From Bacteriovoracia bacterium (GTDB taxonomy: Bacteria; Bdellovibrionota; UBA1018; JBFWNL01): a stretch of DNA of 64,000 nucleotides. A program made the position numbers and the translations under genes. The notes beneath the pieces are model-generated. The model searched no databases, was not told the DNA's origin, and worked only from the letters and a program-made list of their open reading frames with translations. This document shows positions 26,484 to 46,571 of the stretch, piece by piece. Each line of letters opens with the position of its first letter. The first letter of the stretch is position 1. The stretch spans positions 267,825 to 331,824 of the forward strand of contig JBFWNL010000001.1 in NCBI GenBank assembly GCA_050251055.1, given 5' to 3'.

Positions 26484-26511
26484 GGTTAACATAATATTTC
26501 TTATCAGACAT
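26484..26511 (-). other. dif: dif-like Xer site-specific recombination site
   Basis: Minus strand ATGTCTGATAA-GAAATA-TTATGTTAACC (11-6-11) versus E. coli dif GGTGCGCATAA-TGTATA-TTATGTTAAAT; AT-rich island between convergent genes. Confidence 0.75.
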
Positions 26512-28563: not shown

Positions 28564-29526
28564 TCAAGCCAAGTGTAAGTCGTGTTGTCGCACCCGGCGC
28601 AGGAGCGTGGTCTTATTCATGCCGATCTGCCGAGCCGTCAAATTGATTCGGCCACGGAATCGCTCCAGCATCGTCGCCAGGTATTGTTTTTCGAATCGCG
28701 CGATCGTTTCGTAGTAGTCCATCGTCATCGGCACCTCCATCCAGCATACGGCGGCGGGCGCTTCCGCGGCGGTTCGCCCCCCTGAAACGGCTCCGGAGCC
28801 CCCAAGAAAGAACCACGGCGGCAAATGCTCAATCCCAATTTCCTCGCCCTCGGCCGCGCTCACCGCAAACTCCAGAACATTGCGAAGCTCCCGAACGTTG
28901 CCCGGCCAGCCGTGGCGCTCAAGGGATCCCGCAAGCTCTTCTGTAATTCGGCGGATGGCCTTTCCCTGCTCCCGGCTGATCTCGGACAGGCAGGCGTGCA
29001 CAATCGCGTCGAACTCGTCCGGTCGGGCCGCTAGAGACTTTAGTTCCAGCGTTATCACGCGCAATCGGTGAAAAAGATCCTCGCGAAAGTTCCCCCGACG
29101 GGCTTCCGTCGCCAAATCCCGATGGGTGGCGGCGATCACCCGCACGTCCAACTTTAATTCACGGTTCGAACCTAGCGGCATCACGACCCTCGACTGCAGG
29201 AAATCCAGTAACCGCGCCTGCAGTCGAGGGGTGAGCTCCCCTATCTCATCCAAAAAGACCGTCCCCCCATTTGCCATTTCCAAACGGCCCGTGCGCCGCT
29301 GGTCCGCACCGGTAAATGCCCCCCGCTCGTGGCCGAATAACTCCGACTCGAGCGTCCCCTCGTGCATCGTCGCTAAATTCACCGTCACGAATGGCTTCGC
29401 CTTGCGTGGCCCCTGCTCATGAATCTTCCTCGCTAAACGAGTTTTCCCGCTCCCCGTCGGTCCCGTGATCAGGACCGTCCCACTCGTACGCGCGGCCAGA
29501 GCCACTAAATCAACGCTTGCTCTCAT
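28564..29526 (-). CDS. sigma54-dependent activator (bEBP) without N-terminal regulatory domain
   Basis: [47 protein letters not shown]-terminal Fis HTH; start ATG 29526 after a purine-rich RBS. Confidence 0.88.
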   Translation of the reverse strand: MRASVDLVALAARTSGTVLITGPTGSGKTRLARKIHEQGPRKAKPFVTVNLATMHEGTLESELFGHERGAFTGADQRRTGRLEMANGGTVFLDEIGELTPRLQARLLDFLQSRVVMPLGSNRELKLDVRVIAATHRDLATEARRGNFREDLFHRLRVITLELKSLAARPDEFDAIVHACLSEISREQGKAIRRITEELAGSLERHGWPGNVRELRNVLEFAVSAAEGEEIGIEHLPPWFFLGGSGAVSGGRTAAEAPAAVCWMEVPMTMDYYETIARFEKQYLATMLERFRGRINLTARQIGMNKTTLLRRVRQHDLHLA

Positions 29527-29557
29527 CTCTCTCTCCCCTTTTTGGATTTGTTCAAAC

Positions 29558-29603
29558 CATGCCCGCCAACTCCCCCCTAGGTCCCCTACCGCTGGCGGGC
29601 ATG
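29558..29603. repeat. 11-bp perfect inverted repeat in the 5' leader of the bEBP gene
   Basis: CATGCCCGCCA (29558-29568) ... TGGCGGGCATG (29593-29603). Confidence 0.6.
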
Positions 29604-29615
29604 TGCCCTCCCTAG

Positions 29616-29631
29616 AGCAAGTGGCGTTCCA
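29616..29631 (-). promoter_or_regulatory. sigma54 (-24/-12) promoter
   Basis: Minus strand TGGAAC-GCCAC-TTGCT (GG-N10-GC). Confidence 0.65.
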
Positions 29632-29755
29632 ACCATGAACCGCAATCTGGCGTCGCATGAACCAGTTTTCAGGCCGAATGTAGGGAACTGCCCCGAGGAG
29701 GGAGTCCCGAGTTGTGGGATTTCCCCTACAGCTAAAACGGAATGTGGTTAAGCAG

Positions 29756-29784
29756 TTGACGGGTTTTGCCCGAAAGCTTAAATC
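29756..29784 (+). promoter_or_regulatory. putative sigma70 promoter (leaderless)
   Basis: TTGACG-N17-TAAATC, 6 nt before ATG 29791. Confidence 0.5.
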
Positions 29785-29790
29785 TTCCGC

Positions 29791-31206
29791 ATGAATTCAA
29801 AACCCGCCGTACTGATCTGCGATGACGACGCGCTCTTTCAGGCGACGCTGAAGCACGTGCTGGCGGATCGATTCGATATTCATTCGACCACGAATCCGGA
29901 CGAAGCCCGTGCCGCTTTGAAGTCCCGGCCCTTTCAGGTGATGTTGCTGGATATCCAGATGCGCACCCCCGACGATGGGTTACGGGCTCTGCCCAAGATT
30001 CGTGAACTCGAGCCCGATCTTCCCATCATCATGATCAGCGGTCGAAGTGACTTCCACACCGTCAAGGAAGCCATGCGACTGGGCGCGACCGATTACATCC
30101 CGAAAAACTTCGAACCGGACGACCTGCTGATTGCCATCGAACGTGCGCTGACGCATGCACGCACCGTACGCCAAGCAAGGCATCAGGACTTCGAGCGGCG
30201 TAAGGAGCACGGAAAGCATCAGTTCATCGGTAACTCGCCGGCCATCCTGAAGCTGAGGGCCGATTTAGAGAAGATACGCCGACGACCCGTGAATGTCCTC
30301 ATCACGGGCGAAACCGGTACGGGAAAGGAAGTCATCGCCCGGCAACTGCGGGGAAGCCTGGCGGACGGGACTCTGGAGCCTTTCGTCGCGCTGGACTCCT
30401 CAACTATCCAAGGGACCATGGCCGAGAGCGTGCTGTTCGGACATGAACGGGGGGCATTTACCGGCGCGGACCAGCTCCATAAAGGCGTCTTCGAATGCGC
30501 GGACGGGGGCATCGTTTACTTCGATGAAATCGCGAACATGCCGCTCCCAATCCAGGTGAAACTCCTGCGCGTGCTTGAGGAGAAAGAGATCACCCGCGTC
30601 GGGGGGACCCGCGCCATTCCGCTAGAGTTTCGGGTAATCGCGGCCAGCAATCAAGACTTGGCCGCGATGGTACGCAAAGGAGAGTTCAAGGCTGATCTTT
30701 TGAATCGCCTGGACGTAATTCAACTCCAACTGCCTCCCCTCCGCGATCGGCGCGAAGACATTCCTAAGTTAGCGGCTTATTTTTGCGAGCCCCGGACATC
30801 TCACTTCACCGAGGCTGCGCTCATGGCACTGCAAGCGTACGATTGGCCGGGAAACCTGCGCGAGCTTCGCAATGTCATGAACTACGTACTCACTTTGGCC
30901 GACGGCGAAGAGATCGACTTGGGAGATCTCCCGCCAAAGGTACGCGACCCCCTCCCGCGCGCATCGACTCAACTCAAAGCGGTAGATGCGATCCCGGAAA
31001 ACGCCACCCAACTCCTCGCCCAAGGCGTGGGATTTTATGATTTGGTGGCTGGATTCGAAAAGACCGTGCTCGCCGCCGCTTACCGGGAGAGCGATCAAAA
31101 CGTGAGCCAGCTGGCAATCAAACTCGGCATGGACCGTTCGCATTTACACGGAAAGCTCAAGGCTTATGGGATTCACGAAGCCAAGCCCAAGCCTCCCGGC
31201 CGTTGA
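29791..31206 (+). CDS. NtrC-family sigma54-dependent response regulator
   Basis: Receiver (CDDD, LLDIQM, ISG, PK), AAA+ [25 protein letters not shown]. Confidence 0.93.
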
Positions 31207-35701: not shown

Positions 35702-37264
35702 CTAGAGGGCTTTGAGCACGGCTTTCGAAGCCAATGCGCCCGGAGCACAGGTCAGGCCTCCGCCCGGATGCGCGCCACTTCCGCATAGGAAGAGCCCCGC
35801 CACGGGCGACCCGTACTGCGCCACTTCGGGCGACGGACGGGTGAAGAACTGATCCGGCGCGTGCTCGCCGTGGTGGATGTGCCCACCGGCGATGCCGTAA
35901 CGAGCTTCGAGGTCCGGCGGCGTAAGCACTTCCACGCCGACCACGGCCTTGCCGAAACCGGGAGAGTAGCGCTCGAGTTCGCGCACGACGGTGTCCTTGA
36001 GCTTGGCGCGAGTTTCCGCCGTCCACTCCCCTTTTGCCCCACCCTCGCGACAGACATAAGGCACGAAGTTCGCGAGCACCGACACCGACGCGTGCCCTTG
36101 GGGAGCGCAAGCGGCATTCGAAACGCTCGGGACCGAGATGTCGAGCACCGGGCGCTCGGGCATGCGGTCGTACTTCACGCCGTCAAAAGCCTTCTCGACG
36201 AAATCGAGATCCGATCCCGTACGGGCGAACTCAATCTGGTCGTTACCCCACTGCTTGAGGCGGAAAGGCTGGTTGAGGGCGAAGCGCAGCTGCGCGGTCG
36301 TCCCCCGCATGCGGAAGTTCTGGACGCGGCCCGCGAAGAGCTGTGGCAGATGGCGCGGGTTAACCCACTTCAAGAACGTCGTACGCGGATCGCAGCTCGA
36401 GGCTACCGCACGGGCGCTCAGCTGCTCACCCGATGCGAGCTTCACGCCCGTAACCTTACCCTGCTCGACGCAGATCTCGGCGACTTCCGCTTCGGTGCGA
36501 ATCTGCACGCCCAGTGAGCGTGCCGCCTTCTCGAGCGCCGTGGTCAAGGCGCCCGATCCACCCTTCACAAAGGTCTGGGCGCCAGCCTCCCAGAAGAGCA
36601 CGTTCAAGTTGCTCGTCGGGGACCAGGGGCCCATGTAAGTTCCAAACAGCCCCGGACCGCAGATCGCGGCCTTGAGCGGCTGAGACTCGAACCATTCGTT
36701 CATCCAGTCCGCCGCACACATGGGGCCGATGCGCAGGAACTCGAGCATGTCACCCTTACCTAGCCGGCGCAGGGACAGTGCGGTGTTCATGAGGCTCCAG
36801 ATATTGCCCAGATTCAGGTTCACGAGGTCCGGAGGTACGTCGTTGACCAGACGGTCAATAAACGGACGCAGGCGCGTGATAAAATCCTGGTACTTCAGGT
36901 ACTGGTCGGCATCCTTGGGGGAAAGCGCGCGAATCGACTGCGCGGCTTCCTGCGGCGTTCCGCCCAATACGAAGCCCGGGCCATTTTCTTTAGGCACGTA
37001 AACATGCGGACGCGTAGAAGCCAGCTGCAGGCCGTGGCGCTCAAGCCCCAGCTCCGCCACGATGTCCTTGCGTACGCCCGAGCTATCCTGGTGCACGCCC
37101 AAGGAGCGATATCCCGGATGGAACTCTTCGGTCGAGGCCAAGCCGCCCAGCTGGGCGCGCTTTTCCAGGACGAGGACTTTCTTGCCGGCCTTCGCCAGGA
37201 AAGTCGCCGTGGTTAAGCCGTTGTGTCCCCCGCCAATGACGATCGCGTCGAATTGCGTGCTCAT
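35702..37264 (-). CDS. phytoene dehydrogenase-like FAD-dependent oxidoreductase (paralog B)
   Basis: IGGGHNGL, LEKRAQLGG, GGHIHHGE, LCGSGAHPGGG. Confidence 0.9.
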   Translation of the reverse strand: MSTQFDAIVIGGGHNGLTTATFLAKAGKKVLVLEKRAQLGGLASTEEFHPGYRSLGVHQDSSGVRKDIVAELGLERHGLQLASTRPHVYVPKENGPGFVLGGTPQEAAQSIRALSPKDADQYLKYQDFITRLRPFIDRLVNDVPPDLVNLNLGNIWSLMNTALSLRRLGKGDMLEFLRIGPMCAADWMNEWFESQPLKAAICGPGLFGTYMGPWSPTSNLNVLFWEAGAQTFVKGGSGALTTALEKAARSLGVQIRTEAEVAEICVEQGKVTGVKLASGEQLSARAVASSCDPRTTFLKWVNPRHLPQLFAGRVQNFRMRGTTAQLRFALNQPFRLKQWGNDQIEFARTGSDLDFVEKAFDGVKYDRMPERPVLDISVPSVSNAACAPQGHASVSVLANFVPYVCREGGAKGEWTAETRAKLKDTVVRELERYSPGFGKAVVGVEVLTPPDLEARYGIAGGHIHHGEHAPDQFFTRPSPEVAQYGSPVAGLFLCGSGAHPGGGLTCAPGALASKAVLKAL

Positions 37265-38880
37265 ACTTCACCTGATTTCAGAAGGGTTTTCGCCGCGAGC
37301 TCGCCCGGGGCGCCCATGAGGCCTCCGCCCGGGTGCGTGCCCGAGCCACACATCCAAAGGTTCTTGATCGGCGTTTTGTACCGAGCCCAGCCCGCGGCCG
37401 GGCGCAGGAACAGAAGCTGCTCGAGCGAGAGCTCACCGTGGAAGATATTGCCTTCCGTGAGACCGAATTCCTGCTCGAGATCCCAAGGCGTCAGCACCTG
37501 TTTGTGCAGGATGGACTCCTTGAGAGTCGGACAGTACTCCGCCAACGTGTCGATGACGGCGTTGCCAAAGGCTTCGCGCTTCTCGGGCCACTTCGAGGCG
37601 CCTTCCTTAATGTTATACGGGGCATACTGAACGAAGATTGACATCACGTGCTTGCCCGGAGGCGCGACCGAAGGATCGGTCAGCGACGGGATGACGACGT
37701 TGAGATAAGGGCGCTTGGAGAAGTCGCCATACTTAGCTTCATCATACGCCTTCTCGAGGTATTCCATGTTCGGCGCGATCGCGATATCGCCACGCACGTG
37801 CGGGCCGTCACCTGGGCGGCACGTGAACTCGGGGAAGCGATCGAGCGCGAGGTTAACCTTGCCCGAGCTGCCTCTGAGTTTGTAGCGCTTGATCTGGGTC
37901 GTGAACTCGGGATCCAGATGCTCCTCGCCTACGGCCTTGAGGAACGTACGGTTCGGATCCATGGAAGAGATGACGACCTTGGCTTCGATTTCTTCACCGG
38001 TCGTCAAAACGACGCCGCTCGTGGCGCCGTTCTTCACCAAGATACGTTCAATCGGAGCCTGAGTGCGGATCTCGGCGCCGTAGCTGCGCGCGGCGGAAGC
38101 CACAGCATTGCTCACGCCGCCCGTGCCACCTTTGGAAAGCCCCCAGGAGCGCATCGCGCCGTCGATCTCGCCCATGTAGTGATGCAGGAGCACGTAAGCC
38201 GTACCCGGCGAGCGCACGCCCAGGAAAGTCCCGATGATGCCGCTGACGGACATCGGGCCCTTGAGCACGTCGCTTTCGAACCACATGTCGAGGAAGTCGG
38301 CGGCCGACATCGTCATCAATTTAGAATTGACGTACATGAGATCGGGTTCGAAGTCCTTGAAGTAGCGGCCAAGCCTGAGCAGATTCCACAACTCTTTCGG
38401 ATTCACGGAAGCCGGATCCGGCGCCGGCGAATCAATGATGTTCTTGGCGAAGCGCGCGAGTTTGTTCATCGCGATCGCGAACTCGGGGTAGTTTTCGGCG
38501 TCCTTCTTACTGAAACGCGAGATCTCCTGACGCGACTTCGAGGAATCCCCCCAGCGCGCCAGGGAATCGCCGTTCGGCAGCGGCAGGAAGGCACAGTCAA
38601 GCGGCATGATCTCCATGCCGTGCTTGGCGAGCTCAAGCTCCCGGATAATATGAGGCCGGAACAGGCTCACGACGTACGAGCAAACCGAGAACGTGAAGCC
38701 CGGAAAGACCTGCTCGCTGACGGCCGCGCCACCTAAGACGTGCCGACGCTCGAGCACCAGCACCTTCTTGCCGGCCTTAGCGAGATACGCGGCGCTAACG
38801 AGGCCGTTATGACCGCCGCCGACGATGATGGCGTCGTACTTATTCGATTTCGTGCCTAAAGCTTTAGATGTCGCGCTCAT
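37261..38880 (-). CDS. phytoene dehydrogenase-like FAD-dependent oxidoreductase (paralog A, PYROXD2-like)
   Basis: VGGGHNGL, LERRHVLGGA, YVLLHHYMG, GNIFHGE, MCGSGTHPGGG. Confidence 0.92.
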   Translation of the reverse strand: MSATSKALGTKSNKYDAIIVGGGHNGLVSAAYLAKAGKKVLVLERRHVLGGAAVSEQVFPGFTFSVCSYVVSLFRPHIIRELELAKHGMEIMPLDCAFLPLPNGDSLARWGDSSKSRQEISRFSKKDAENYPEFAIAMNKLARFAKNIIDSPAPDPASVNPKELWNLLRLGRYFKDFEPDLMYVNSKLMTMSAADFLDMWFESDVLKGPMSVSGIIGTFLGVRSPGTAYVLLHHYMGEIDGAMRSWGLSKGGTGGVSNAVASAARSYGAEIRTQAPIERILVKNGATSGVVLTTGEEIEAKVVISSMDPNRTFLKAVGEEHLDPEFTTQIKRYKLRGSSGKVNLALDRFPEFTCRPGDGPHVRGDIAIAPNMEYLEKAYDEAKYGDFSKRPYLNVVIPSLTDPSVAPPGKHVMSIFVQYAPYNIKEGASKWPEKREAFGNAVIDTLAEYCPTLKESILHKQVLTPWDLEQEFGLTEGNIFHGELSLEQLLFLRPAAGWARYKTPIKNLWMCGSGTHPGGGLMGAPGELAAKTLLKSGEV

Positions 38881-41667: not shown

Positions 41668-42078
41668 CTATCGCTTGGCAGAACGAAGGCGCATGATGAC
41701 GCAATCGATGCCGCCGATGACTCCGGTTACAACAAGGCCCAGTCCGGAGTAAAGCGCGAAGCCGTAGGGATTGGGCCCCAGCATCATCGCAATGAGCCCA
41801 GCTGCGATCAAGCCTAGACTCATTCCGCAGACGGATCCGCCGCGCGAACGGTCCCAGCGCCGGGCCAGGAGCAGAATGGACGGCACCGCGAAGACGGTTC
41901 CGGCGAACTCATCGTAGAACGGAGCGGCGGCCATCACGAGGGATATGAAAACCAAAAACAAACGAGGTTTGGATTCACGAATGCGGAACGCTAGTAGCAA
42001 ATCCGCCAAGCGCGTGACGAGAATGACCCCGAACGTCAGCTGCACTGCGTGATCCACAAAGAAAAACAGCGGCCCCAT
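41668..42078 (-). CDS. hypothetical membrane protein
   Basis: Several hydrophobic segments; fills the gap in the minus-strand run. Confidence 0.5.
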   Translation of the reverse strand: MGPLFFFVDHAVQLTFGVILVTRLADLLLAFRIRESKPRLFLVFISLVMAAAPFYDEFAGTVFAVPSILLLARRWDRSRGGSVCGMSLGLIAAGLIAMMLGPNPYGFALYSGLGLVVTGVIGGIDCVIMRLRSAKR

Positions 42079-42155
42079 AAGGCTCGAGTATGACGGAACT
42101 TTTTAAAAACAACCAGTTGTTATTTCCTGAGTTGTTTGGGATCCTAATAGGGAGA

Positions 42156-43748
42156 ATGCAGCCCCTCAAAGGCGGAGCAGTTGTAATCATCCTGATGCAG
42201 TTGATCCAGCCCACCGGCTTGCAGGCGGCGGAGTCCAAGCCACGCGCCACGTCTCGACCTCGAACCTCCATTCCGCCTTCCAAGACGAACTCCGCGAGAA
42301 CCCGCCCGACGGCGCCGACCGCCAAGGCGACGCCCGCCCCTAAGGCGCCGAGTAAAAACGCGGCGAAACCTGCGGCGCCCGTGAAGCTAGAACCTTACGT
42401 GCCACCGGAAAACTTTCCGGATCTGCCGAAGTTCAACATCAAAACTGTCGACGCCAAGGGAAAGGTCGTAACCCTGCAGTGGAAACAGCGAGGCCAATGG
42501 ATTTGGGAAAAAACGCCCCAGCTCTATCTGCTACTGCAACTCCCCCTAGGCTATACGCTCTCCAAGCTCAAGCGGGCATCGACCGTGCTCAAGAAAAACC
42601 CCGTTTGGGCCAAAGGGGAAAAAGACGGTGGAGACATCGCGGCGTTTCAGATCGAGGCGCCGCTTCAGACGGCGACACTCGAGATTCTCGACGCCAAGAA
42701 ACAAGTGCAGGAAGTTAGCGTCATCGTGGAAACGAGCAGCGAAGGGGGCATCGTGCAGATGGACCCCACCTGCGCGGAAGCGGGTATGGTCATGAGCCCG
42801 ATCGGCAAGCCCAAGGAGGACGAGCATCCCCTCTTCCTCGTCGGCACCTGCCAGATGATCAACGATACGCAGGCGGAGTTGACGCTTCATTTTCCTAAAA
42901 CCCAGGAGATCCCCAAGCACACTTTTCGCAGCCCGCGGGAAAAGGGTACCGGCTTTCACAAGTTCTTTGTGAACAAAGAAACGGATATCAGCAAGAACGA
43001 GAAGCTGCCGCACTATAAGTTCATCCTCCGCGACACGAACACCTCGGACGCCTACCGCTACCAAATCGTCTGGGGAGCGGGCTCCTCGCGCAAACGCCTC
43101 TCCTTCAGCGCGGCCCTCTCCACGACTTATCTGCACTACACCGAGACCACCAACGTGAGCACGGTGAACCTCACCGAGTTCGCCATCACCGCGAAAGTGG
43201 GCGCCGCCTACCCGCTTTACAAAGACGCGCTCGATTTCGGGCTGAACTTCTTCATCAATGCATTGCCGGTCTACAAAAACGTTTACAACGGCACGGCCGA
43301 GCTCAGCCCCGCCGTGCGGTTTTACGGCATCAACACGCGCTTCGGATGGCGCCTACCCATCAAGTCACAGCGAATCGCCGTCCGCCTGAACGCGGGCTAC
43401 TATTTTTGGGGCATGATCATTCCTCCCGGTCCGAATGGCGAAGAGCCCACGTTCGGCATCCGCGCGCTGGGGGGACCGCAAGTGCTTCTCAGCACGAAGA
43501 TCGATCCGGGCAACGGCCATCCCTTCTGGTTCTACTTCAAGTTCGCGCCGATCTCGTCCGGGTTCGCGCTCGAGAACATCGCCAACCGCGAGATCGCCGG
43601 GGGCATGGGGTACCTCGTCAGCCCGCGCACCAGCAAATGGACCTGGTCGATCACCGCGGATATCTCCGACTTCAAATTCCAGCCGCCGGAGTTCACGAAC
43701 CAAATCAGCCTTTTCACCACGAGCCTGGGGTTAGAAGTTGGATTTTAG
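42156..43748 (+). CDS. secreted hypothetical protein with Pro/Thr/Ser/Ala-rich N-terminal linker and probable C-terminal beta-barrel
   Basis: Signal-like MQPLKGGAVVIILMQLIQPTGLQA; low-complexity tract; aromatic strands ending LGLEVGF; start uncertain (42090 or 42156). Confidence 0.7.
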   Translation: MQPLKGGAVVIILMQLIQPTGLQAAESKPRATSRPRTSIPPSKTNSARTRPTAPTAKATPAPKAPSKNAAKPAAPVKLEPYVPPENFPDLPKFNIKTVDAKGKVVTLQWKQRGQWIWEKTPQLYLLLQLPLGYTLSKLKRASTVLKKNPVWAKGEKDGGDIAAFQIEAPLQTATLEILDAKKQVQEVSVIVETSSEGGIVQMDPTCAEAGMVMSPIGKPKEDEHPLFLVGTCQMINDTQAELTLHFPKTQEIPKHTFRSPREKGTGFHKFFVNKETDISKNEKLPHYKFILRDTNTSDAYRYQIVWGAGSSRKRLSFSAALSTTYLHYTETTNVSTVNLTEFAITAKVGAAYPLYKDALDFGLNFFINALPVYKNVYNGTAELSPAVRFYGINTRFGWRLPIKSQRIAVRLNAGYYFWGMIIPPGPNGEEPTFGIRALGGPQVLLSTKIDPGNGHPFWFYFKFAPISSGFALENIANREIAGGMGYLVSPRTSKWTWSITADISDFKFQPPEFTNQISLFTTSLGLEVGF

Positions 43749-45003
43749 ACAAGTCACGCAGGCGTGCGTGATCGCACTCGTGGGTTTTTTACTTTTCATC
43801 GTCAACATCCAGTTCCCGCGGGGCCATAATTTCGACGAGTTCCACTACGTGCCCGCGGCCAAGGAGTTCTTAAAACTCGGTACGAACCGCAACTGGGAGC
43901 ATCCCCCGCTACCAAAATACTTCATCGCGGCCGGCATGGCCCTCGACGAAGACCGCCCCTTCGGCTGGCGTTGGGTGAGTTGCGTATTCGGCGCGATTAC
44001 GCTGGCCGGGATGTACTTCTGGGCGCTGGCGCTGTTCAGGCAGGAGCGCCTGGCGCTCTTCGTAACCTTCATCACGCTCTGCAACCACATGCTCTATGTC
44101 CAGTCGCGCATCGCGATGCTGGATATTTATATGATGGCGTTCCTGGTGTGGGCGCTGGCTTTCTTTACCCGGGCGGCCGATCCTGCGACGCCGGCGCGGG
44201 CGGCCAAACGTGCGCTGGCGGCAGCAGGGGTTTTGATTGGCCTCACGACGGCCTGCAAGTGGTTCGGGATGATTCCTTGGCTCGCGATCCTGGGTGTAAT
44301 CGTGGCGCTGAAGCTTCAGTTCAGTGATCGCAAGAGTTTCTGGCGCAAACTCGGCTACGGCTGGATCGCGGCGTGGTGGCTACTTATTCCGGCTGGGATC
44401 TACATGGCGACCTTCCTACCGCTACTGTTGCTCAAGGGAACGCATTACGGTTTTTGGGACCTCTTCCTACTACAAGGACAGATCTGGTCCGCGCAAAGCG
44501 CGCTGAAAAACACGCATCCCTACCTGAGTAGCTGGTACCAGTGGCCCCTGATCTCGCGGCCCATTTGGTACGCGTTCGATCACGAGCCTGGGCCAGCAGG
44601 GTGGGTGCGGGGCGTGCTCTTTCTGGGCAATCCCCTCGTCATGTGGTCAGGGCTCGTGGCCCTGGGATTCTGCGCTTGGAACTGGTTTAAGGAAGGCTCA
44701 CGGGTGGCACTGCTGATCCTTTTCTTTTACGGCGTCCTTTACCTGAGCTGGGCCGTCATCCCGCGGCACGTGAACTTCTACTACTATTACTTCCCCGCCG
44801 GTATGTCGCTGAGCCTGGCGGTCGCCTATGTATTCTCGCGCTACGACCAGGAATCCAGCCGTCGCCGAACCCTCTCCCCTTACCTGTTGGGCTACGCGGC
44901 GCTTTGCCTCGGGATCTTCGTCTACTTTTTTCCGGTGCTCGCGGCCCTAAGGATCCCGACGGAACACTTCAAGCGGTTCATGTGGTTTTCGAGCTGGGTT
45001 TAA
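43738..45003 (+). CDS. PMT/GT39-family lipid-carrier-dependent glycosyltransferase (protein O-mannosyltransferase-like)
   Basis: FDEFHYV, EHPPL, GWR, SRIAMLD, KW, HPYLSSWYQWP, LGNP, YYY; multiple TM helices. Confidence 0.87.
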   Translation: MDFRQVTQACVIALVGFLLFIVNIQFPRGHNFDEFHYVPAAKEFLKLGTNRNWEHPPLPKYFIAAGMALDEDRPFGWRWVSCVFGAITLAGMYFWALALFRQERLALFVTFITLCNHMLYVQSRIAMLDIYMMAFLVWALAFFTRAADPATPARAAKRALAAAGVLIGLTTACKWFGMIPWLAILGVIVALKLQFSDRKSFWRKLGYGWIAAWWLLIPAGIYMATFLPLLLLKGTHYGFWDLFLLQGQIWSAQSALKNTHPYLSSWYQWPLISRPIWYAFDHEPGPAGWVRGVLFLGNPLVMWSGLVALGFCAWNWFKEGSRVALLILFFYGVLYLSWAVIPRHVNFYYYYFPAGMSLSLAVAYVFSRYDQESSRRRTLSPYLLGYAALCLGIFVYFFPVLAALRIPTEHFKRFMWFSSWV

Positions 45004-45892
45004 GCGCGGCGTTGGCCGCGAAAAGCACTTCGTAGGTACGGAACGCGTAACGTGTCTTCAGCCCCAGCCGGCGCTGGATCTCGTCCAAATCCACGCCTTG
45101 TTGCTGCCAGTGACAAACCACCGAATGCCGAATGATCCGCGGCGTGAGTTTGGCGAACCCCAACCGTCGAGCCATGGCTTTGACCAGCAGCTCGACACCT
45201 CTTGGACTCATCGGTCCCGAAAGCGGCCCGTGCCGCGTGTGCCCAGAAAATAACCACTTTCCCACTAGCCCCCGCTTACGGGCGAAAGCCTGCAGATCCG
45301 CGTGGGCCCGGGGGGAAAGCGGCACCTCGCGGGGGGACTTGCCACCGAAGGAAAGGCGATTAGGGGCGCTGCCTACCCCTTGTTCTGTCGTCAACTGCCC
45401 CAGCTCACTCACCAAGCAGCCGGTTTCCAGCAGCAAGGTCAGCACGAGACGATTCCGCTCGTCTAGCTCCGTCGCCACAGGAAGGCGCGCCACCTGATCC
45501 GCGAGCGGCATCACCGCAACCGTAAACGGGACCTTCTCTAGCTTGCCCGGCGCGGGCACTTTCAAAGCCGGATCCACTTCGAGTTTGCCCCGGCGGTTGA
45601 GGTAGCGAAAAAGCCGGCGGACGGTGAGCACCTTACGGCGCCGGGTATTGACCTTTAGCCCTTGGACCTTAAGAAACGCGTTGTAAGCTTCCAGGTCCTT
45701 CTGGCCGACTTTTTCCAAGACGATGGGACGTCCCCGGAAGCGATGCTCGAGGTAACGCTGGAAGCTGAGGAGATCGGAACGGTAGCTGTTAACCGTATGC
45801 AGGGCTTTTTCCGTGCCCTGTAAATACCCTACGAAGCTTTTCATGACATAGGCATAAGTCAGCGGGTTGGGCGCGGATTTCGTAGCCTTCAT
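44978..45892 (-). CDS. XerC/XerD-like tyrosine recombinase family protein with degenerate active site
   Basis: N-terminal SAM-like domain ([24 protein letters not shown]); C-terminal [25 protein letters not shown]. Confidence 0.85.
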
Positions 45893-45920
45893 TGACCTGG
45901 ATCCTACCATAGATTACAAG
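45892..45920 (+). promoter_or_regulatory. putative sigma70 promoter (leaderless) for fsa
   Basis: TTGACC-N17-TACAAG, 6 nt before ATG 45927. Confidence 0.45.
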
Positions 45921-45926
45921 CATCCC

Positions 45927-46571
45927 ATGAAGATCTTTATTGATTCAGCGGAATTGAAAGAAATTGAGGCGGCCGCTAAGACTGGGCTGATCGACGGCGT
46001 GACCACGAACCCCTCCCTCGTCGCCAAGTCCGGGATGAAGTTTGAAGACTTGCTGCGGAGGATATGCGAACTAGTGGATGGGCCCATCAGCGCCGAAGTC
46101 ACCGCGCTCGACGCCCCCGGGATGATTGAACAGGGCCGCAAGCTCGCCGCCATGAACCGCAACATTGTCGTGAAGATCCCCCTCACCTTCGAAGGTCTGA
46201 AGGCCGCAAAGATTTTCGCGAAGGAAGGCATCCGCACGAACGTCACGCTTTGCTTCTCCCCCGTCCAAGCCATGCTTGCCGCCAAGGCGGGCGCGACTTA
46301 CATCTCCCCTTTCGTGGGACGCTTGGACGACATCGGGCACGTCGGGATGGACCTCATCCGCGATATCAAGACTTGTTACGACCACTACGGGTACTCCACG
46401 CAGATCCTCGTCGCCAGCGTTCGGCACGTGGAGCACATGGTGGAATCCATCCGCATCGGCGCCCACGTCGCCACCATCCCCTACAAGGTATTCAGCCAAC
46501 TCCTCGACCACCCGCTCACCGAAATCGGGCTCGCCAAGTTCATGAAGGACTGGGAAACCGCTAAGAAATAG
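45927..46571 (+). CDS. fsa: fructose-6-phosphate aldolase / short-type transaldolase
   Basis: [39 protein letters not shown]. Confidence 0.92.

Follow-up and report, generated by a model that had tools for sequence, protein, structure and literature searches.

The Xer-like gene considered here lies in a stretch of 64,000 nucleotides from a Bacteriovoracia bacterium (GenBank assembly GCA_050251055.1, genome code G000; contig JBFWNL010000001.1, positions 267,825 to 331,824 of the forward strand), which as a whole is referred to as the window. The gene is an open reading frame (ORF) with zero stops that encodes a 304 amino acid long protein, and an alternative ATG at position 45910 would extend the product to 310 amino acids. 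Pfam profiles detect Phage_int_SAM_1 (PF02899) at residues 18-102 (E 3e-11, 43.9 bits, cut-off 22.3) and Phage_integrase (PF00589) at residues 134-279 (E 6.4e-11, 42.8 bits, cut-off 27.1). A convergent glycosyltransferase gene of the PMT family overlaps the Xer-like gene by 26 nt, an aldolase gene of the TAL_FSA family (fsa) is its divergent neighbour, and none of the ORFs between 40 and 50 kb of the window appeared to be an integrase or a transposase (Table 1). An initial annotation had described a full-length ORF of about 304 codons with both Xer domains and no stops, set between a glycosyltransferase and fsa and with no mobile genes nearby, and the locus agrees with this description in each respect.

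The catalytic residues of the protein were compared with those of E. coli XerD (1a0p) in a phmmer alignment. The first catalytic arginine, R148 of XerD, corresponds to L160 (ETGCLVSEL against ATGLRVSEL), H244 corresponds to R252 (TPRIIRH against SPHVLRH) and H270 to L278 (LGLK against LGHS), which bears out the R to L, H to R and H to L replacements that the initial annotation had named. The second arginine, R247, is retained as R255, and Y287 is found nine residues after L278, as in XerD. K185 aligns with the first lysine of the XerD GKGxK motif (the β-hairpin lysine, K172 of XerD by count) and appears to be retained. The residue set that marks a tyrosine recombinase as an enzyme, R-K-H-R-H/W-Y and chiefly both arginines together with the tyrosine, is not present in the 304 amino acid protein. 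In the available text of a study on Cre, no substitution of the tyrosine is active, and the two arginines form the next most essential class (PMC2943603).

These replacements are a family trait. A search of 5.8 billion proteins gave 145 hits, the best 120 of which form a tight group (41-50% identity, E 1e-59 to 1e-85) that is clearly apart from ordinary Xer proteins and is called family A. Among these 120 members, the first arginine position is occupied by leucine in 97, glutamine in 15, arginine in 4, alanine in 2, glycine in 1 and a gap in 1. Position 252 is arginine in 117 and lysine in 3, whereas R255, L278 and Y282, the latter four residues after L278, are each found in 120/120. Lysine is present at the K185 position in 107/120, and R285 is also conserved near the former active site. 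At the canonical nucleophile position, 92 members have tyrosine, 23 phenylalanine and 5 leucine, and the nucleophile is thus dispensable in the family. The substitutions are accordingly fixed across the Bdellovibrionota orthologs, with the first arginine present in only 4 members. The further claim that the second arginine and the nucleophile tyrosine are kept is correct for both residues of the 304 amino acid protein and for the arginine throughout, but it does not extend to the tyrosine across the family.

The G000 assembly (3.77 Mb in 21 contigs, 93.5% complete) contains eight Phage_integrase matches, among them canonical xerC and xerD genes. L001 is of the XerD type and located beside scpA and trpS, L002 is of the XerC type and located beside a trmFO-like gene, and both encode the full R-K-H-R-H-Y set; five of the matches are ordinary integrases by appearance. 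L001 scores 327.8 on the XerD model and 336.2 on NF001399 (cut-off 279), and L002 scores 298.2 on the XerC model. The Xer-like protein reaches 105.8 bits on the XerD equivalog model TIGR02225 (cut-off 329.6) and 100.8 bits on the XerC model TIGR02224 (cut-off 335.15). By sequence, the two canonical paralogs hold the role of the dif-acting pair, and the Xer-like protein, judged in the same way, is a third paralog and not an ordinary Xer. An odd match was obtained with chain 14 of PDB entry 9i5v (401 residues, deposited as 'Ribosome-associated translation inhibitor RaiA'), which aligns with the Xer-like protein over 260 residues. This chain looks like a canonical Xer-type protein (LYEVGLRRSE, SPHVLRHS, LLGH), and the mismatch between its name and its sequence probably reflects either a fusion or an oddity in how the entry was named.

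Named records that carry family A are nearly all labelled Bdellovibrionota (Bacteriovoracaceae, Oligoflexia, Bdellovibrionia, Bdellovibrionales); the listing comprises 73 loci, two of which are merely ordinary Xer proteins at 26-29% identity, and some of the records, for example those of loci L062 and L100, do not carry a metagenome-bin label. Within the same order, 25 of 40 genomes have a family A match at E 1e-29 or better, and none of the nine genomes of family code f11 has one. Of 92 loci, 69 have an intact ORF, and many of the others end at contig boundaries. One homolog (G024:C119:18971-19992) matches in two pieces, residues 17-196 and 213-294, that lie in separate frames, possibly a frameshift or a pseudogene in one lineage. 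The ratio of nonsynonymous to synonymous substitution rates (dN/dS, NG86 method) is 0.078-0.195 in 9 of the 12 closer ortholog pairs, while the other three pairs are saturated. With dS at 0.9-3.4 across the pairs, these ratios are rough, though clearly far below 1, and they indicate purifying selection.

An AlphaFold2 model built from 55 family sequences has a mean predicted local distance difference test score (pLDDT) of 93.1 and a predicted template modelling score (pTM) of 0.81. Its best Foldseek matches are XerA (E 7e-12), XerH, IntI, Cre, XerD (E 8e-9) and lambda Int, with a probability of 1.00 to XerA, XerH, Cre and XerD, which places the model in the tyrosine recombinase fold. The N-domain helix KTNTRRRKLLTVRRF is nearly invariant in family A and more basic than its counterpart in XerC and XerD. 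Taken together, the fold model, the dN/dS values and the fixed changes in the pocket show an intact DNA clamp that is under selection without canonical chemistry. The Xer-like protein is therefore probably, with a likelihood of roughly 0.75, a non-catalytic DNA-binding protein. The initial annotation had likewise suggested a retained DNA-binding protein rather than a recombinase, and the fixed substitutions, the dN/dS values and the canonical XerC and XerD encoded elsewhere in the genome lend support to this proposal.

The gene lies 18.5 kb from a dif-like XerCD site of 28 nt. The cumulative GC skew of contig C1 turns from rising to falling at about C1:260-295 kb, which coincides with this site, and the annotated position near the apparent terminus is thus confirmed. 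A 21-nt dif core, allowing up to three mismatches, is present as a single copy in each of 24 of 41 related genomes, compared with one match for a reversed control. Where the gene and dif share a contig (9/9 genomes), they are 6.6, 6.7, 10, 16.8, 18.2, 18.5, 53, 85 and 120 kb apart, a sample that is biased towards short values because distant pairs land on separate contigs. In G001, a divergent homolog (31% identity) is located on another contig than dif, more than 600 kb from either contig end. In addition, tilS and other neighbours are found near the terminus even in families without protein A. Because of this and of the bias towards short distances, the terminus position taken alone may reflect inherited gene order. 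Half-sites resembling the arms of dif were considered as analogues of the XDS sites of B. subtilis and rejected: within 100 kb of dif, XerD-arm-like and XerC-arm-like 12-mers (up to two mismatches) are not enriched, with 3 observed and 3.2 expected for each arm.

A different sequence proved to be concentrated around dif. All 9- to 12-mers within 30, 60 and 100 kb of dif were compared with the whole G000 genome, and the top word was AGGATATGCG; the genome (3.77 Mb) contains five copies of it, none of them more than 57 kb from dif (uncorrected binomial p 3.3e-8). Of these, the three left-hand copies have minus and the two right-hand copies plus orientation. Corrected for about 5e5 words and 12 parameter settings, the p-value is borderline, which speaks against a reading based on this genome, and the motif was therefore tested in other genomes. 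The 12-mer AGGATATGCGAA has four copies in G000, at -56.5, -35.9, +19.6 and +40.6 kb from dif. The copy at +19.6 kb is located within fsa, 167 nt ahead of the Xer-like start; along the direction of the Xer-like gene its sequence is TTCGCATATCCT. In five relatives, exact copies likewise flank dif (Table 1), and the reversed-motif control yielded one match in total in the same scan. A variant that differs by one letter, AGGATATCCGAA (the C-variant, as opposed to the G-variant above), gave 17 matches against 1 for the control in five genomes, and four genomes (G028, G042, G043, G045) contain six further G-variant copies that fit the same arrangement.

Table 1. Features of the Xer-like locus, its relatives and the terminus motif (window coordinates unless a locus is named; distances in kb are from dif)
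Feature	Position	Strand	Remarks
Xer-like gene, putative pseudo-recombinase (family A)	44978..45892	-	core-binding domain at about residues 13-100, catalytic-fold domain at about 127-297
Codon of L160 (first catalytic Arg position, XerD R148)	45413..45415	-	alignment to 1a0p and family tally
Codons R252-I-I-R255 (R252, XerD H244 position; R255, retained second Arg)	45128..45139	-	alignment to 1a0p
Codons L278 to Y287 (L278, XerD H270 position; Y282, +4; Y287, +9)	45032..45061	-	alignment to 1a0p
dif-like XerCD 28-mer	26484..26511	-	in gap between convergent ORFs, at GC-skew switch (replication terminus)
Polar terminus motif copy	46054..46074 (core AGGATATGCGAA 46059-46070)	+	inside fsa; found by k-mer enrichment
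Exact 12-mer copies, G009	-52, +23 kb		2/2 on dif contig
Exact 12-mer copies, G041	-59, +16, +32 kb		3/3 on dif contig
Exact 12-mer copies, G034	-78, -30, +21, +23 kb		4/4 on dif contig
Exact 12-mer copies, G044	-26, -11, +12, +24 kb		4/4 on dif contig
Exact 12-mer copies, G037	-26, +116, +159 kb		3/5 on dif contig
PMT-family (GT39-like) membrane glycosyltransferase	43738..45003	+	Pfam PMT, PMT_2, PMT_4TMC; convergent neighbour; context only
fsa/transaldolase-family gene	45927..46571	+	Pfam TAL_FSA, E 2e-61; divergent neighbour; harbours motif copy
Recombinase B	L032:11324-12565 (G028)		equivalents in L029-L035, L038 and L043; absent from G000

All 34 copies on dif contigs, in 10 genomes, follow one mirror rule, minus to the left and plus to the right of dif (G-variant 26/26, C-variant 8/8). 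There are 2-7 copies per genome, and dif lies between the innermost opposed copies in 8/8 genomes that have copies on both sides. Eight genomes have a large dif contig, which holds 24 of their 26 G-variant copies. Alignment of 37 copies defines a motif of about 21 bp, CGMTR-AGGATATGCGAA-N-YTA, or CGMTR-AGGATAT(G/C)CGAA-NYTA if both variants are included, and exact matches over 41 genomes number 59, compared with 10 for the reversed control. The result is a small number of asymmetric sites in two opposed groups that flank the terminus, as in a fork trap, and along the path of a fork heading to dif the motif reads 5'-TTCGCATATCCT-3'. In G013, where dif was not found with the 21-nt pattern, the orientation of the motif switches between C11:55503 (-) and C11:90317 (+). 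This switch predicts, from the sequence, that the terminus and dif of G013 are within C11:55.5-90.3 kb; the Xer-like gene of this genome (C11:84803-85645) is located inside the same interval.

Three further observations concern the words around dif. Two identical 21-mers, CGCATAGGATATGCGAACTTA, which include the imperfect palindrome CGCATA-GGA-TATGCG, occur in G000 in opposite orientation. One is located 35.9 kb to the left of dif (C1:258425-258445), antisense in tilS, and the other 40.6 kb to the right (C1:334889-334909), between genes. A longer 18-mer, CGCATAGGATATGCGAAC, was rejected as a marker, since its 8 matches in 41 genomes (up to two mismatches) do not exceed the approximately 5 expected by chance, and only the 12-mer core is informative. 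The second of the enriched 12-mers, the GC-rich CGGGCGGAGGCC, has four copies in the genome, two of them within tandem paralogs at positions 35702-38880 of the window (minus strand), which encode proteins of 520 and 539 amino acids.

Several copies overlap coding sequence. The tilS copy is always antisense in the N-terminal coding region, where the codons xxT TCG CAT ATC CTx are found in 9/9 parseable motif-bearing genomes, and the preceding codon retains its final T despite variation in the encoded amino acid (S, N, A, T, D). Genomes without protein A have other residues at this position of tilS, and several genomes with protein A have one-letter variants of the motif. The fsa copy of G000 is spelled AGG ATA TGC GAA (R-I-C-E), with AGG representing 3.0% of the arginine and ATA 4.6% of the isoleucine codons, and the probability of this spelling from codon usage is about 5e-4. 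As judged from codon choice, the motif is under selection at the DNA level and overlaps coding sequence at a cost in preferred codons.

The motif and protein A tend to occur together. At least two exact copies are present in 13 genomes, 12 of which have protein A, and the exception is 64% complete. The exact motif is absent from 12/12 genomes of families f2 and f8, in which A is divergent or missing, and from 8/9 genomes of f11. In five f11 genomes without A, there are no exact copies in four and one in the fifth; with up to one mismatch, matches in these five equal the control and none are on the dif contigs, which are known for 3/5. In 58 distinct ortholog loci (309 kb, with the window excluded), TTCG[CG]ATATCCT has 14 copies, all 14 co-oriented with the gene, and the control has none. 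Nine of these 14 copies are 113-223 nt upstream of the conserved N-terminal KSFxGYL motif; in one clade the motif is located exactly in the gap between gene A and a divergent transporter gene, and in G044 a copy is found about 110 nt upstream of gene A. A gene adjoining one of its candidate sites, as known from fork traps, is thus seen in G000 (167 nt), in G044 (about 110 nt) and in 9 further loci. Since the gene sits where the motif is densest, it is only the promoter-proximal clustering, in about three independent clades including G000, that stands out.

A number of observations weigh against a link between the protein and the motif, or against the motif system as a whole. The exact G-variant is missing from G002, G006, G008, G013 and G017, all of which have protein A, and G013 has the C-variant only; it is also missing from all 12 genomes of f2 and f8, including those with divergent homologs. 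C-variant copies are scattered widely over other contigs. No motif copy is present within 20 kb of gene A in G034, G037 and G009, and location alone predicts about 10 copies in the 309 kb of ortholog loci. The 34/34 count does not represent 34 independent events, because inheritance accounts for orthologous sites, the tilS copy among them, and because terminus-symmetric inversions preserve polarity automatically. The co-occurrence of motif and protein is confounded by phylogeny: the tested genomes that have neither are all in a few families (f11, f2, f5), and another lineage-specific protein could therefore be the binder. The proposed link is drawn from co-occurrence, proximity and analogy, and we consider the chances that the Xer-like protein binds the polar motif to be about even.

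Based on these data, the following scheme can be proposed. The Bdellovibrionota-specific family would descend from XerC/D-type tyrosine recombinases, having kept the DNA-clamping fold and given up strand cleavage. Its members may bind, as site-specific proteins, the rare asymmetric motif of about 21 bp, CGMTR-AGGATAT(G/C)CGAA-NYTA, which is the leading candidate for the recognised sequence, and the resulting complexes would serve as polar barriers or landmarks around the replication terminus. The motif copy upstream of the gene could allow the protein to regulate itself, as terB does for tus. A motif that is polar about the terminus suggests a process with a direction, and the barrier might act on replication forks (a fork trap), on Smc-ScpAB complexes travelling from the origin (an unloading similar to that by XerD at XDS sites) or on FtsK, the last being less likely because the copy number of the motif is low. 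That the polar sites form a replication-fork trap in particular is doubtful at present. The same tentative standing applies to the more specific idea of a third, independently evolved fork trap, in which a tyrosine recombinase without chemistry would act as terminator and clamp, as a monomer, polar Ter-like sites (core AGGATATSCGAA) on either side of dif, and its gene would adjoin an inner site and probably be regulated by it. If true, an Xer scaffold would have evolved convergently with Tus and RTP.

A second conserved chromosomal tyrosine recombinase, called B, raises the alternative that protein A is a non-catalytic partner or regulator of B, or of XerC/XerD at dif, as in Xer reactions in which cutting by one partner suffices. 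Recombinase B is about 400 amino acids long (approximately 390-520), has a basic, low-complexity N-terminal extension and keeps an intact catalytic set (R, K, H-x-x-R, W and Y, seen as R / GKG / SPHSCR / GW...TRY), with tryptophan at the third histidine position as in Cre. It is present in 24/40 relatives, usually near dif, like gene A itself, and of 21 genomes with both genes, 16 have them at most 6 kb apart, in arrangements that differ across families f2, f4, f6-f9 and f12; in G005 and G014 a motif copy is found 36-60 nt upstream of B. Nevertheless, A occurs without B in six genomes (G000, G002, G009, G013, G019 and G031, of which G009 consists of 4 contigs and is 96% complete) and B without A in four (among them G020, G023 and G032), and the two are thus separable and not an obligate pair. 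The motif is present without B in G000 and G009, and G020 has B and lacks both protein A and the motif. The lack of enrichment of dif-arm-like half-sites near the terminus also argues against a partner at dif, and we regard this explanation as rather improbable. In G040 (C43, L035), the glycosyltransferase-BtpA-B block is inverted relative to gene A when compared with other f4 genomes (L029/L030/L033), and one breakpoint of the inversion is the 3' end of the Xer-like gene.

Protein A could also still be an enzyme with a rewired active site, in which R252 replaces the lost first arginine and Y282 (or Y287) serves as nucleophile, acting on the polar motif or on another site. IntDOT is an example of a recombinase that is active without the first arginine in its usual place. 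In family A, K185, R255, the arginine or lysine at position 252 (120/120), the invariant Y282 and R285 remain in or near the pocket and leave some room for catalysis, which counts against a protein devoid of chemistry. The positions of His289 and Trp315 in Cre tolerate many substitutions, according to the available text of PMC2943603. However, the first arginine is missing in 116/120 members and the canonical nucleophile in 28/120, and Y282 is five residues, or about 1.4 helical turns, away from the canonical position. No conserved pair of inverted or direct repeats flanks the locus as a possible substrate; within the window, repeats of both kinds between positions 36000 and 48500 are at chance level, and no candidate invertible segment was seen. 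Since the motif occurs as single, asymmetric copies separated by tens of kb, recombination between them would invert or delete large segments of the terminus. In Xer proteins, the C-terminal tail contacts the recombinase partner; the tail after the last helix of family A is variable and not conserved. A rewired enzyme is improbable in view of these points.

The gene neighbourhood in relatives suggests another function, that of an ordinary local transcription factor for the neighbouring genes (a divergent LivK-type ATP-binding cassette (ABC) operon in relatives, and fsa or the glycosyltransferase in G000), with the terminus position as inherited gene order. The glycosyltransferase adjoins the ortholog in 13/19 loci, and extended loci show the recurrent block B - BtpA - SEC-C protein - glycosyltransferase - A - LivK-type ABC operon - fsa. 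In 8 of 15 extended loci, gene A is divergent from the ABC operon, which is of the branched-chain amino acid type, with gaps of about 80 bp where the ORFs do not overlap. The location of the motif in this gap in one clade, and of the tilS neighbourhood near the terminus even in families without the protein, would fit such a regulator. It leaves unexplained why, at distances of 10-150 kb, motif copies flank dif in strict mirror orientation and why they are found inside unrelated genes against codon preference. Furthermore, G000 has lost the ABC operon from the position beside the gene and the gene itself is intact. A purely local regulator is therefore distinctly improbable.

Most orthologs (e.g. 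L015, L013, L053 and L066) are preceded by a near-consensus TTGACA-N17-TAnnAT promoter, and since its -10 box ends 6-9 nt ahead of the start codon, a leaderless mRNA is suggested by the sequence. In G000, the upstream region consists of a gap of only 34 bp to fsa, with a TAGGAT box 9-14 nt ahead of the ATG.

The weakest alternative, a decaying pseudogene or sequencing artefact, would account for the missing catalytic residues and for nothing else, and it was rejected as practically negligible because the active-site substitutions are fixed across 120 proteins drawn from many assemblies, dN/dS is 0.08-0.20 and the fold is predicted with high confidence.

Some ORFs of the window depart from the arrangement in relatives, where the SEC-C gene and the glycosyltransferase gene are directly adjacent. 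Here, they are separated by a 552 amino acid ORF (42090-43748, plus strand) and by a membrane ORF of 136 amino acids (41668-42078, minus strand). The former has no Pfam match; its N-terminus is rich in alanine, proline and lysine, and its C-terminal part is β-rich in appearance. A pair of paralogs encoding 364 and 471 amino acids in divergent orientation is located at positions 28564-31206, in addition to the tandem pair mentioned above.

Descriptions of family A, of a dead Xer paralog in Bdellovibrionota or of the motif were not found in a literature search that covered neither subscription papers nor supplements, and the 12-mer appeared in two unrelated animal studies only. In the available part of a review on B. 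bacteriovorus chromosome biology, dif, xerC and xerD are the only such elements mentioned, and the words Tus and MatP do not occur. According to the accessible text of PMC10331603, the known fork traps are built on just two protein families, unrelated to each other and narrowly distributed, and many bacteria apparently manage without a trap. A dead Xer paralog together with a rare polar site array around dif would, if true, represent a new way to mark or insulate the terminus, and it would illustrate the conversion of an enzyme fold into a module that serves DNA recognition only. The motif may also be of practical use as a marker, because its orientation switch predicts the position of dif in fragmented assemblies such as G013.

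XerC and XerD (TIGR02224, TIGR02225) are among the closest known systems. The Xer-like protein shares their domain architecture, approximately 24-26% identity with the XerD and XerC of G000 itself and several motifs (HT..Y..DL, the RR of the N-domain helix, xSE and R-H-S). In contrast to them, it is far below the equivalog cut-offs, has the first arginine and both histidines replaced, and belongs to a family in which both the nucleophile position and the C-terminal tail are variable. In B. subtilis, the terminus contains dif-like XDS sites at which Smc-ScpAB is unloaded by XerD (Karaboja et al. 2021, as cited in PMC11840125). The two-domain fold of the Xer family is common to both systems, and protein A would likewise act without recombination at several candidate sites in the terminus region. 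B. subtilis uses the active XerD itself in a recombination-independent manner at sites that resemble dif, whereas in Bdellovibrionota a separate, catalytically depleted paralog is found, canonical XerD is retained, and the candidate sites are unlike dif and strictly polar about it.

The layout of the sites is reminiscent of Tus-Ter and RTP-Ter. A few asymmetric sites of about 21-23 bp in two opposed groups with dif between the innermost ones (8/8 genomes), the location of some sites inside ORFs and a protein gene beside one site are shared features. In the text available from PMC10331603, terB regulates tus, rtp is autoregulated, and outer ter sites are located inside ORFs. The fold is unrelated, being that of a tyrosine recombinase; profiles for Tus (PF05472) and RTP (PF02334) have no match in G000 (93.5% complete), with positive controls in E. 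coli and B. subtilis, respectively. A precedent for the proposed use of the fold is TnsF of Tn6022-like Tn7 transposons, an inactivated tyrosine recombinase for site selection (PMC10293859, available text), which would share with family A the role of an inactivated recombinase domain as a site-specific DNA recogniser. TnsF is transposon-borne, carries extra N-terminal zinc fingers and, in the same source, is described as having no catalytic chamber, whereas family A is chromosomal, vertically inherited in a housekeeping context and keeps the whole fold. Thus, the family A system differs from XerD-XDS, from Tus-Ter and RTP-Ter and from TnsF in at least one defining respect each.

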